Notes under the pieces: model-generated
What the model saw: only the letters and a program-made list of their open reading frames with translations
Told to the model about the DNA's origin: nothing
The model's database searches: none
Virus record (IMG/VR): IMGVR_UViG_3300033978_000437
From: a virus
Length of the DNA stretch: 64,000 nt
Direction: 5' to 3' (one strand)
Position numbers and translations under genes: made by a program
Part shown: positions 1-23,042 of the stretch, piece after piece
How positions within the stretch are numbered: the first letter of the stretch is position 1
How the letters are laid out: each line of letters begins with the position of its first letter

Positions 1-5533
<5,533 letters not shown>

Positions 5534-16874: not shown

Positions 16875-17692
16875 TCTGGTTTTAACCTCATTTTGTAGTA
16901 AGGAGAATTATTATACCAATCAACTGGAACAGCTTCCTTGTTGCCCATCAACCCAATTGCAGCCGTATCTGAATACTCTATCATCTGTTTCCAAGCCTTG
17001 GGTGTAATCAAATAACCGCCATCTGCCCATGAGTTGGCAGCTCTAAGATTACCATCTTTGTCATAGCCTAAAACACACATTGCATGCCCACCGCCACTGC
17101 GTCGTGGTTGATAACTCCGCACAATTCGATCATCAGGTATATATCCATCGTAATAAGCAATACCAAAGTTAATTGCACCTCCGCCACCAATAAAATCTAA
17201 TACCTTGTCATGATCATCTGGAACTTCCCATAAAGACAGTGCCTTGTAAGGAAGTGCAGCTTCATAGTTGGCAGCGCTTAAAATAGCTTCTCGATCTGCC
17301 CTTCTAGGATAACCACTAGGATAACCAGTAAGAGATTCAGGACAACAGCCATATTCAAGACCAACTTGGCATCCTCCGGAGATAGTAGAGCCATCATCGG
17401 AGCCAAGAAGTCCATCTAATTTCTGAGAAGAAAGATAAGCAAAAATCTCAGATAGCTGTACAGTTTCACCTCGTACCAAGGCTAATCGTTCTAGCACTGA
17501 GCTAAGTGAATGACCTTGGCAACTTCCAATTTGTCCTTGGTCTTCGTTGCGATGCCACTTAATGTCTACTTCTGCGGGGCGGGCAAATGCTTTCCATAAA
17601 GGGGTAGACATGGGAACTCGAGAAAGACTACGAATAAAGCTGTAATCTTCTTTTTCTTTTTTCCAATTACCTGACATTTTTGTTTCACTCAT
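16871..17692 (-). CDS. Papain-family (C1A-like) cysteine peptidase
   Basis: Catalytic motifs DQGQIGSCQGHS (oxyanion Gln, Cys), GGGHAMCVLGY (His) and ANSW (Asn). Confidence 0.9.
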   Translation of the reverse strand: MSETKMSGNWKKEKEDYSFIRSLSRVPMSTPLWKAFARPAEVDIKWHRNEDQGQIGSCQGHSLSSVLERLALVRGETVQLSEIFAYLSSQKLDGLLGSDDGSTISGGCQVGLEYGCCPESLTGYPSGYPRRADREAILSAANYEAALPYKALSLWEVPDDHDKVLDFIGGGGAINFGIAYYDGYIPDDRIVRSYQPRRSGGGHAMCVLGYDKDGNLRAANSWADGGYLITPKAWKQMIEYSDTAAIGLMGNKEAVPVDWYNNSPYYKMRLKPE

Positions 17693-18045
17693 TTTGCATA
17701 GCTCCTTAATAGTTTTTCATGTGCCTTGGCAGACCATCCGCCTTGTTTGACAAAATAATCTTGTTCGCTTTTTGCTAGCTCTTTAAAGGCAGCTTTGCGG
17801 GCAGGTTCTTGTCCTGCTGCAATAAAATCCCAAGCTTCTTGTTCTGTCTTAATATCGCCAGAAGCCAGCTTGTCCGCTGCAGCTTGAGCATGGGCCCGCC
17901 ATAGCTGCTCATAGGTCGCAAATACTTGCTTAGGAGAGGCAACGGGGGTACTTGGAACAAATGCAGTTGAATCGCATTGAAAAGGCCCAATCAATAAGAA
18001 TAGCCCAAAAGCACCACTCAGCAGTCCTAGATAACGCAAAGACAT
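17689..18045 (-). CDS. Small exported or membrane-anchored helical protein
   Basis: Hydrophobic N-terminus LGLLSGAFGLFLLIGPFQC; helical remainder. Confidence 0.5.
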   Translation of the reverse strand: MSLRYLGLLSGAFGLFLLIGPFQCDSTAFVPSTPVASPKQVFATYEQLWRAHAQAAADKLASGDIKTEQEAWDFIAAGQEPARKAAFKELAKSEQDYFVKQGGWSAKAHEKLLRSYAK

Positions 18046-18060: not shown

Positions 18061-18456
18061 TTAATTTTTTACTTCTTCAGGTTTAACGACATTAGGGGTA
18101 CAGTCATTGCGTCTAGCTAGTTTAGCTTCCGTAATGGCTACTTGTGCTTCTGTCATCTCGGCTTTCGCATACTCCCACCAAATGGAAGGATTAGCATTAG
18201 GTGAAGTCGCTTCAATAATTTTAAGAAACTCCCCAATACCTGCAGGTGCAGGGGCATCGCTATTGCGAGTTTTAGGAGCGGGGGTAGGTGCGGGAGGAAG
18301 AATGTTTGGAATATCAGAAACAAAGCGAGAGGTTAGCTCTTTAATCCAAGGAATTGCAAAAAAAACTATTCCAATAGCTAGCAGCACAATGGTTAAAATA
18401 GGTTTAACCCAAGGAATTAACCCTGCCAAATCTATTACAATTTCACCTATAATCAC
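18061..18456 (-). CDS. Single-TM membrane protein with Pro-rich linker
   Basis: KPILTIVLLAIGIVFFAIPWI, then PPAPTPAP. Confidence 0.55.
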   Translation of the reverse strand: MIIGEIVIDLAGLIPWVKPILTIVLLAIGIVFFAIPWIKELTSRFVSDIPNILPPAPTPAPKTRNSDAPAPAGIGEFLKIIEATSPNANPSIWWEYAKAEMTEAQVAITEAKLARRNDCTPNVVKPEEVKN

Positions 18457-18468
18457 AGGACACCTCCT

Positions 18469-19371
18469 TTAAACACAAGTGACAACTAATTTCTGCCCTT
18501 TGTGCAACTCTACGGCTAATGTATTTTTTGTTTCTTTCTTAACCCCTACTGCATTTTCATTTTTCCCATATAGTTTTTGAATGCGCTTAATATCATCATT
18601 ATCTTGGGGACCGCTTACAAAAGGGTTATAGTAGGGGGCCATCAGTGCCCCAGCATTCTTTGAGTGGTCTAACCCAAGAAGATGCCCAAATTCATGGCAA
18701 GCAACATTTAACATCATAACTCCACGATCCGTAGGCTGAGAAATCCAAGTTTCATCCAGATCGAACCGCATTGTTAGTTGTTGGTCATTCCCTTTTGGCA
18801 TATAAGCCCAAGCTAGCGTACCACCTCTCCCATCAAAATTATGCTGTATTCCCTTACCTGTAGCAATCGCAATGTCTGCTTTCTTTGCGTCTTTGATTCG
18901 GGTAATGTTTAAACCGCACACATCGTCCCAAGCTTTAAAGGCTGCAGCTAGTATTTTATCTTGCGTTGGCTTGCCTAGCCCTGTGACATACTGTTGAACA
19001 GCAAAAGTAAGCCCATTCTTATTCCATCGATTACGCTGCTTCTCCGCAACATCTTGAGCTTCCATAAACTGGATATGTTGTTTATTTTTAGGATCAAGCT
19101 TATCAGGGCAGCCACAACGAGGAGTTTCCATGGCTCGTAAAGTTTTAGGCCCAATAACCCCATCTACTTTCAAATTAAACATGCGTTGAAATGTTTTGAC
19201 TGCTGCTTCGAGCTTGGCATAGTCCATGTTCTGAAGCAAATCAATGGCGACATAACCAAAGAAAGTTAGGTAGTCCATCGCAAAGTGCATTGCTTGTGGA
19301 GAGTTTTTATCACTTCCATTTTTCTTAAATAAACGGATAGCTTCTACCCGCCCTTTTTGCTCTAGTGACAT
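18469..19371 (-). CDS. Matrixin/MMP-like (M10A) zinc metalloprotease with pro-domain and cysteine switch
   Basis: Pro-domain YLTFFGY...AVKTFQRMFNLKVDGVIGPKTLRAM; PRCGCPD; RWNKNGLTF; FDGRGGTLAWAY; FDLDETW; HEFGHLLGLDHS; Met-turn ALMAPY; DDIKRIQKLYG. SD GGAG upstream. Confidence 0.93.
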   Translation of the reverse strand: MSLEQKGRVEAIRLFKKNGSDKNSPQAMHFAMDYLTFFGYVAIDLLQNMDYAKLEAAVKTFQRMFNLKVDGVIGPKTLRAMETPRCGCPDKLDPKNKQHIQFMEAQDVAEKQRNRWNKNGLTFAVQQYVTGLGKPTQDKILAAAFKAWDDVCGLNITRIKDAKKADIAIATGKGIQHNFDGRGGTLAWAYMPKGNDQQLTMRFDLDETWISQPTDRGVMMLNVACHEFGHLLGLDHSKNAGALMAPYYNPFVSGPQDNDDIKRIQKLYGKNENAVGVKKETKNTLAVELHKGQKLVVTCV

Positions 19372-22304: not shown

Positions 22305-23042
22305 TTACCTCGGAATAAAAGGAGACAATTTTTGTTCTTGATCCAGCAATTGCTGTATCTTAGTTTTACGCTGGGTAATAGCACCTGGGCTGCGATTAAG
22401 CTTGGCAGCAATTTCTTGATTTGATAGTTTTTTATTTCCACGCATTCCCAATGTCAGTTCCATGATGCGCTGGTCTAAAGGACTTAGCCCTTGATAAACT
22501 ACTTCACCCCATAGGTCTGCACTAGCTTGCTGGTTAGGAACTACACTTGGAGCACCTCCCGCTAATGGGTCAATTGCATCTAATCTTCCTGTGTTAACTC
22601 CGGGCTGATAGCTACGAATCTTTGCAAGACGGGGCATAGCTATCCCCAGCTTGTCTGATAGTTCTGCGTCAGTAGGATCTCGCCCAAGCTCGTCTGACAG
22701 CTCTTGTGTAGATCCGTGTAACCTTTGATTCTCTAGCAAGATGCGTTCAGGTACGCTTATTACTTGATGCTGCTGCTGGTTAATCCTACGAAGCCCTTGC
22801 ATCTGGGTTAACAAGTGCGACTGAAGGCGGGACCGCTTTGGATCGTACTTACGCACTGCGTCCAATGCTAACAGCTTGGCACGGCTAGACGTTAATGGAC
22901 TATCTGCACCATACATCTTGACCCCCTTTTGTACTATTGGATCAAGTGCTTTTAGTAAGGCAGCGTTGCCTTCTGGTGTTTGATTCTGCTGCCAGCTTTG
23001 AAATGCTGGTTTATATTCGTCTTCTAAATAATCGTCCATCAT
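22305..23042 (-). CDS. Sigma-70-family sigma factor (regions 2-4)
   Basis: AVRKYDPKR-SRLQSHL (region 2); ISVP...ELSDELGRDPTDAELSDKLGI (region 3); LSPLDQRIMELTLG...LSNQEIAAKLNRSPGAITQRK (region 4 HTH). Confidence 0.88.
   Translation of the reverse strand: MMDDYLEDEYKPAFQSWQQNQTPEGNAALLKALDPIVQKGVKMYGADSPLTSSRAKLLALDAVRKYDPKRSRLQSHLLTQMQGLRRINQQQHQVISVPERILLENQRLHGSTQELSDELGRDPTDAELSDKLGIAMPRLAKIRSYQPGVNTGRLDAIDPLAGGAPSVVPNQQASADLWGEVVYQGLSPLDQRIMELTLGMRGNKKLSNQEIAAKLNRSPGAITQRKTKIQQLLDQEQKLSPFIPR

Follow-up and report, generated by a model that had tools for sequence, protein, structure and literature searches.

A cysteine-switch matrixin zymogen encoded in the baseplate operon of uncultured freshwater phages

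What use would a bacteriophage have for a matrix metalloproteinase (MMP) that is made in a latent form and without an export signal? The question is raised by one gene in a 64,000-nucleotide stretch of phage DNA, hereafter the window, which is the minus strand of bases 114,690-178,689 of the 178,753-bp IMG/VR virus record IMGVR_UViG_3300033978_000437. The record comes from a freshwater jumbo phage of about 200 kb and has an estimated completeness of 83%. An earlier note, made from the letters of the window alone, had described the encoded protein as an MMP-like zymogen (pro-MMP), and we confirmed this observation: the open reading frame (ORF) at 18469-19371 on the minus strand is real. Its start codon has AGGAG 8 nt upstream, inside a 14-nt gap behind a baseplate-J-like gene, and the next gene starts 12 nt past its stop, behind AGGAGG; all genes in the window are on the minus strand. 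It is close to certain that the protein is a cysteine-switch matrixin zymogen, that it is real and under selection, and that it is made without an export signal.

Architecture and conservation of the zymogen

Pfam assigned residues 115-269 to the Matrixin family (PF00413) over the whole profile, positions 1-159 of 159, with an E value of 3.3e-36 and 125 bits against a cut-off of 24; the same profile scored the protein at 126.9 bits in a genome-wide search. Ahead of this domain, residues 34-81 matched PG_binding_1 (PF01471; 3.3e-10). The top PDB sequence match by phmmer was pro-MMP-9 (5ue3; 2.7e-30), aligned over residues 30-269 with PRCGCPD lying on PRCGVPD. An AlphaFold2 (AF2) model built with 121 homologues had a mean pLDDT of 89.4 and a pTM of 0.85, and its best Foldseek matches in the PDB were the proenzymes of MMP-3, -9, -10, -1 and -7 over about 250 columns, ranked above isolated catalytic domains (entries matched include 1slm, 8k5v, 9csx, 5ue3 and 1su3). 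In the model, residues 1-33 form two additional helices ahead of the pro-domain core, and the linker that joins the switch to the catalytic domain, which exceeds its pro-MMP-9 counterpart by about 14 residues, is predicted to be helical. The pro-domain, switch, zinc motif and Met-turn that the earlier note had read from the sequence were thus all borne out by Pfam, PDB and AF2/Foldseek comparisons. PRCGCPD, which it had assigned to nt 19102-19122, corresponds exactly to residues 84-90, with Cys86 as the presumed zinc-capping thiol; HExxHxxGxxH runs from H226 to H236, followed by S237, and the Met-turn is ALMAP at 242-246.

The note had also seen no signal peptide, and a hydropathy scan agreed: the N terminus is hydrophilic and helical, and no signal peptide was found, the top 19-residue Kyte-Doolittle mean being 1.16. 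Two of its motifs held only in part. FDGxGGTLAxA is present, with Trp188 at the variable position in place of the zinc-binding His of MMPs. Alignment to pro-MMP-9 showed that all four structural-zinc ligand positions are replaced (K173, I175, W188 and M201), and Trp188 is shared by 117 of 136 family representatives. The basic junction KQRNR is likewise present, but it sits on a predicted helix and is only loosely conserved (R113 in 57/121 sequences, R or K at 115 in 94/121), and therefore a conserved, furin-type cleavage site is not supported. These data suggest that the protein is an M10A-type (matrixin) metalloendopeptidase, catalytically intact by its predicted motifs and made as a zymogen. 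Because the structural-zinc site is replaced, it is a phage-specific variant of the animal MMP architecture and not a copy of it.

A 90%-identity database yielded 432 relatives, and a 121-sequence alignment of the family spans 43-93% identity. All of the best 120 relatives are about 300 aa long and carry Matrixin, and most carry PG_binding_1, according to a precomputed Pfam table; RCG..D and the zinc motif occur in every one. Across the 121 sequences R85, C86, G87 and D90 of the switch are invariant, as are H226, E227, H230, G233 and H236 of the zinc site. An exhaustive phmmer search over 1.84 billion cluster representatives (50% identity) returned 202 clusters at E<=1e-30 and 2560 at E<=1e-10. 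Of the 136 best representatives that were aligned, all but three carry the switch Cys (133 of 136), and those three are truncated N-terminally; the Gly after it is variable in this set, and the second Cys, which makes the CGC of the query, occurs in about half.

The ratio of nonsynonymous to synonymous substitution rates (dN/dS) against two close relatives was 0.04 and 0.08, and for the pro-domain alone it was 0.017-0.074. In independent runoff and freshwater assemblies a 3.5-kb stretch shows 3 and 11 differences, and of the seven that fall inside the pro-MMP ORF six are synonymous. Because the switch Cys is conserved, dN/dS is low and the differences in the ORF are mostly synonymous, the latch is kept by selection and is not a relic. 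The latency that the note had proposed is supported by this universal conservation under strong purifying selection; the timed activation that the note drew from it is putative.

Distribution and ancestry

The earlier note had regarded a pro-MMP as unexpected in a phage late operon and had weighed its reading against the prospect of closely related pro-MMPs proving routine in tail modules. In a clade of uncultured phages they are routine, standing behind baseplate-J, and the surprise does not hold there. Among 50,697 deposited phage records, in contrast, tblastn of the protein found no relative at E<=1e-5, and megablast of 10 kb was also empty. IMG/VR contains about 25 contigs of 37-408 kb with the same architecture of about 300 aa. 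In a collection of one genome per species for 185,579 prokaryotic species the single close match was a phage contig binned into a metagenome-assembled genome (MAG), and true bacterial homologues were at most 32% identical, several of them with RCGxPD. Pro-MMP is a vertically inherited core late gene in a clade of uncultured phages of 150-235 kb that encode a multisubunit RNA polymerase of their own.

The phylogeny called for by the note was run as a quick maximum-likelihood tree of 63 rows without an assigned root; it covered animal and sampled bacterial sequences and no plant or insect-virus sequences. In it the phage family and a group of phage mini-MMPs were set apart from the animal and sampled bacterial sequences by a branch with 99% SH-aLRT support. 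The mini-MMPs are a second phage class of 195-225 aa, in which a twin-arginine-type (Tat) signal, RRxFL, is followed by the catalytic domain; in many of them a cysteine-switch-like PRCGVKD lies within about 10 residues of that signal. They were found at loci L109-L143 (for example L110:3905-4552, L114:3971-4585 and L121:3863-4504), and the contigs are those of phages, one with a large terminase 1.3 kb away and others with glycosyltransferase morons.

M10 homologues with an RCGxPD pro-domain, at 24-32% identity, were also found in bacteria, namely in Acidimicrobiales, Poriferihabitaceae, Blastocatellia, a betaproteobacterium and Bryobacterales (L018, L019, L020, L025 and L026). Start codons permitting, they have no obvious signal peptide. 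The occurrence of these pro-domains in bacteria means that the cysteine-switch zymogen design is not confined to eukaryotes.

The source phage recurs in many lake-water metagenomes sampled from 2020 to 2024. Its nearest cultured relatives are the Vibrio phages D181, D148 and D69 and the Salmonella phage Arash, at about 30% RNA-polymerase identity; all four have the same baseplate gene order without an MMP. We claim no host, the lead being weak: a 54%-identical relative lies on a 25.6-kb phage contig in a 'Candidatus Nanopelagicales' MAG with 50.6% GC. Four estuary metatranscriptome contigs of 151-198 nt also fell on the 3.5-kb stretch. Three were identical to it and one had 10 differences in 154 positions, and only one touched the MMP ORF, in its last 11 nt; as possible DNA carry-over they were not used for expression or habitat.

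Gene neighbourhood and cell wall hydrolases

In 16 related loci on phage contigs of 150-235 kb, a baseplate-J gene lies directly upstream of pro-MMP, at spacings from an 11-nt overlap to a 19-nt gap, and the order baseplate-J, pro-MMP, variable island and then a conserved 518-aa protein is conserved. The features of the gene and its neighbours are listed in Table 1.

Table 1. Features of the pro-MMP gene and adjacent genes (window coordinates)
Feature	Position	Strand	Remarks
Pro-MMP gene	18469..19371	-	300 aa; ATG at 19371, TAA at 18469-18471
PG_binding_1-type helical pro-domain core	19129..19272	-	Residues 34-81; Pfam, AF2 helices; aligns with solved pro-MMP pro-domains
Cysteine switch PRCGCPD	19102..19122	-	Residues 84-90
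Linker helix, switch to catalytic domain	19015..19083	-	Residues 97-119; holds KQRNR and invariant W116
Matrixin catalytic domain	18565..19029	-	Residues 115-269
Catalytic zinc motif HEFGHLLGLDH	18664..18696	-	Residues 226-236, then Ser237
Met-turn ALMAP	18634..18648	-	Residues 242-246; nearly invariant in 121 sequences
C-terminal tail, 31 residues	18472..18564	-	Low-confidence fold; ends in conserved strand-like GQxLxVxC
Baseplate J-like wedge protein, 553 aa	19386..21047	-	PF04865 1.4e-9, phrog_6 1.7e-19
131-aa protein	18061..18456	-	N-terminal membrane segment, Pro-rich linker, C-terminal domain
118-aa helical protein	17689..18045	-	N-terminal signal-like segment
Papain-like (C1) cysteine peptidase, 273 aa	16871..17692	-	PDB 3ois (Xylella) 4.6e-14

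The C1 peptidase has the Q/C/H/N-W motifs, no signal peptide and no Pfam match. In the sub-clade of the window, 8 contigs whose MMPs are 49-96% identical keep the genes for pro-MMP, the membrane protein, the 118-aa signal-peptide protein and the C1 peptidase together as a block. More generally, 11 of 12 distinct clade members have, right after pro-MMP, a gene whose product carries a hydrophobic N-terminal segment, a feature of 4.5% of ORFs genome-wide. These downstream partners belong to at least two unrelated families. Family A comprises membrane-anchored, Pro-rich proteins of 115-140 aa, represented in the window by the gene at 18061-18456. Family B comprises signal-peptide proteins of 524-638 aa with an invariant c-type haem motif, CxxCH, whose nearest named Atlas clusters are of PSCyt1-type cytochrome c domain proteins (L003:6996-8762, L090:4882-6453, L097:3807-5639, L100:5173-6885 and L098:5156-7069); they stand beside pro-MMP even where no baseplate-J is detectable upstream, and the source genome has no family B homologue. 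Neither the neighbours at distant pro-MMP loci nor the downstream partners matched a PHROG or Pfam family, and a 589-aa partner had no match in a PDB sequence search. A secreted haem protein of family B, encoded beside a thiol-latched zymogen, might serve as its oxidative activator.

Targeted searches and a Pfam scan of the 178.7-kb record (whole-protein E<=1e-4 to 1e-2; minimum ORF length 95 aa outside the window and 100 aa within it) detected no lysozyme, transglycosylase, amidase, M15, M23, NlpC/P60, CHAP or other wall hydrolase domain, and the D181 endolysin as query found no match in the source genome. Five relatives (four at least 93% complete; one with terminal repeats and 100% complete) likewise had no Phage_lysozyme, SLT or Amidase_2 domain. 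In each of these six genomes the sole PG_binding_1 domain is that of pro-MMP. The cultured relatives, which have no MMP, carry ordinary lysins: a Phage_lysozyme domain in Arash gp8, a structural protein of the tail module, and an annotated 130-aa endolysin in D181. PHROG endolysin families matched pro-MMP on residues 36-118 only; its catalytic domain is M10 and belongs to no recognised murein hydrolase family. How these phages open the cell wall is unexplained unless pro-MMP does it.

Possible sites of action and related systems

We favour, with about even confidence, the reading that pro-MMP is a cytoplasmically made, thiol-latched peptidase that acts on the host envelope at or near lysis. 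Since there is no signal peptide, the protein would be synthesized in the cytoplasm of the host at a late stage of infection. The corresponding Cys of solved pro-MMPs caps the catalytic zinc, which here would be held by H226, H230 and H236. Such a thiol-zinc latch could keep a broad endopeptidase harmless while virions are being built, and the enzyme would get to the envelope once the membrane is breached, with the adjacent exported or membrane protein as a possible partner for reaching it. The pro-domain may have a double role, as inhibitor and as peptidoglycan-targeting module. The latch could open without a furin-type cut, either through thiol oxidation as the reducing environment is lost or through displacement as the pro-domain docks on the wall; both routes are speculation, consistent with MMP chemistry. 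Candidate substrates are the peptide stems or cross-links of murein, and wall-anchoring or surface-layer proteins.

Three considerations point to lysis or exit through the envelope: no wall-related protein other than pro-MMP could be recognised in six genomes, pro-MMP is paired with an exported or membrane protein much as an endolysin is with a holin, and a protease made in the cytoplasm needs latency until the membrane is breached. The Tat-exported sister mini-MMPs, in turn, place the site of action of the phage MMP lineage outside the cytoplasm. The closest functional precedent is found in Listeria, whose wall is altered by expression of the phage-derived metzincin Mtz, which sensitises it to phage-mediated lysis (PMC8235301).

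Several points weigh against the envelope reading. About 60% of the ORFs have no Pfam match, and an unrecognised lysin may exist among them. The place of the gene inside a baseplate operon would be just as fitting for a virion enzyme. Neither PHROG nor Pfam gave a match for the downstream membrane proteins, which are only candidates for a holin role. We know of no M10 enzyme that cuts peptidoglycan, and the pro-domains of animal MMPs share the fold without, to our knowledge, binding murein. The second Cys of the CGC pair would suit a redox switch, but only about half of the wider family has it and its Cys positions do not co-vary, so that a redox function is no more than a minor possibility.

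A bolder form of the envelope reading, which we hold only tentatively, is that pro-MMP is the lysin of the clade, with a genuine peptidoglycan-binding domain that doubles as cysteine-switch inhibitor, the enzyme being on only when it is outside the reducing cytoplasm and docked on the wall. If this is true, the zymogen architecture of MMPs originated in a wall-directed peptidase of microbes or phages; the 'peptidoglycan-binding' fold of animal MMP pro-domains would be explained, and phages would be plausible vehicles for inter-kingdom transfers of MMP genes.

Alternatively, the zymogen could be carried in or on the baseplate, possibly by way of its strand-like C-terminal tail, and lose its latch once outside the cell or when it touches the wall, where it would cut a proteinaceous surface layer or murein peptides for passage of the tail and so replace the tail lysozyme of related phages. 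We regard this main rival as possible though rather unlikely. The tight position behind baseplate-J in 16 loci speaks for an enzyme of entry, as does the lysozyme domain in the tail module of Arash, which has no counterpart in this clade, and latency would shield virion proteins during assembly. However, on distant phage contigs pro-MMP occurs with no detectable baseplate-J neighbour, yet with an exported one, and the Tat-exported sister group works from within the infected cell. Gene order alone cannot separate an entry enzyme from a lysis enzyme. It is much less probable that the protease is released to act after lysis on proteins other than the wall, such as extracellular matrix, debris or the receptors of competitors, or that it processes collagen-like fibres of the phage. 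MMPs are the classical collagen- and gelatin-cutting enzymes, a protein of more than 1843 aa with collagen repeats is encoded in the window, and collagen-like genes occur in four of five relatives; the fifth, G004, is 93% complete and has pro-MMP without a collagen repeat, and on this ground an obligate tie to phage collagen was rejected. A benefit that comes only after lysis would, moreover, be hard to select in a lytic phage, and the PG_binding_1 module and the exported neighbour would be left unexplained.

Proteolytic removal of the pro-domain is the classical route of MMP activation, and the neighbouring C1 peptidase could perform it, in which case the four-gene cassette would be a protease-based lysis module. 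This proposal draws on the retention of the block in 8 contigs, across the wide range of MMP identity given above, and it is compatible with the envelope reading as an activation route in one sub-clade, but we consider it distinctly unlikely. The C1 enzyme lacks a signal peptide, and no C1 gene occurs in the flanks of L002, L003/L088, L016, L082 and L090. Because these loci keep the switch Cys, C1 cannot be the general activator, and as a universal one it was rejected on co-occurrence. Hardly credible, finally, is the idea that an animal MMP gene was recently captured, or that the assembly is contaminated, and that the gene serves no adapted role in the phage. It is true that, of the relatives found, the only longer ones are animal MMPs with hemopexin domains, at 35-38% identity. 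Against this, phage genes lie on both sides of pro-MMP in one contig, the gene is near-identical in independent lake, runoff and freshwater assemblies, and the phage clade is large, deeply diverged and divided from animal sequences by the 99% branch. Strong purifying selection also opposes a capture, which tree and synteny contradict.

Among known systems, the closest likeness is to the animal and plant MMP proenzymes of family M10A (pro-MMP-9, pro-MMP-3 and the minimal pro-MMP-7), with which the phage protein shares the three-helix pro-domain of PG_binding_1 fold, PRCGxPD, HExxHxxGxxH followed by Ser, the Met-turn and the overall fold at 30-38% identity; like pro-MMP-7, it lacks a hemopexin domain. 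Unlike these enzymes it has no signal peptide, its structural-zinc ligands are replaced, its helical linker is longer, and it carries two extra N-terminal helices and a short C-terminal tail. Its gene stands in a baseplate operon, and in the tree a strongly supported split sets its family apart. Karilysin of Tannerella forsythia (PDB 2xs4; E 2e-22), the structurally characterised bacterial MMP, is a prokaryotic protein with a matrixin catalytic domain, to which the match is confined. It is a secreted enzyme that retains the structural zinc, and its latch is an Asp of a short propeptide, not a PG_binding_1 domain with a Cys. The MMPs of insect double-stranded DNA viruses (granuloviruses, ascoviruses, entomopoxviruses, iridoviruses and nudiviruses) are virus-encoded matrixins as well and gave the best matches in a viral structure library, but they are only 20-27% identical and belong to eukaryotic viruses, where their targets lie in tissue matrix. 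Secretion is usual among these MMPs, and most of them have no cysteine switch.

Two kinds of phage endolysin offer parallels of design. Those of the phiKZ gp144 and EL gp188 type have an N-terminal PG_binding_1 domain on a late, signal-less enzyme of large phages, and in the thiol-regulated P1 Lyz, Cys-based latency until exit from the cytoplasm is known endolysin logic. In both, the catalytic domain differs from the one described here, which is a metzincin and not a glycosidase, transglycosylase, amidase or M15/M23 peptidase, and for which murein cutting is only putative. The Listeria pair Mtz/Tim resembles the present locus in that a phage-associated metzincin is encoded beside a small exported protein, Tim being a TIMP-like lipoprotein (PMC8235301). 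Mtz differs in being secreted, in belonging to a prophage remnant under a CI/Cro switch and in having no PG_binding_1/Cys-switch zymogen, and the partner proteins are likened here without shown homology.

Full-text literature searches turned up no account of a phage pro-MMP. The metallopeptidases listed in a comparative jumbo-phage survey are others, with no metzincin or MMP among them (PMC7824862). In a 2025 phylogeny of MMPs, whose root is unresolved, microbial MMPs are treated as tools for eating animal matrix and are used as a clock calibration, with no mention of phages or viruses (PMC12587646). MMP evolution is actively debated, and the present data add to it a large phage-borne family with a full cysteine-switch pro-domain and no obvious animal substrate. 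Part of the 'microbial' MMP signal in metagenomes is accordingly viral; the zymogen design is not a eukaryotic invention, and a testable origin is offered for the pro-domain fold. A clade of abundant lake phages in which no lysozyme, transglycosylase or amidase is recognisable may use a latched protease to lyse cells or to enter them, and this protease, if so used, would constitute a new class of lysin or lysis accessory.

Besides the baseplate genes and pro-MMP, the window contains split multisubunit RNA polymerase genes, a sigma-like gene and the collagen-repeat gene. The last of these (2-5533, minus strand; PF01391, 3.3e-132) runs off the window at the distal end of the tail-fibre region. 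The sigma-70-like gene (22305-23042, minus strand) lies in the middle of the baseplate module and matched Sigma70_r3 at 1.4e-5, with weak matches to region 4 and helix-turn-helix families; it occupies the same place in the relatives and in phage Arash, whose copy bears a sigma-factor annotation. Outside the window the genome encodes a tubulin/FtsZ-family protein, SET and SNF2 domains, PhoH, ribonucleotide reductase, a C5 DNA methylase, many glycosyl- and sulfotransferases, and a DNA polymerase A fused to a domain of the uracil-DNA-glycosylase family.

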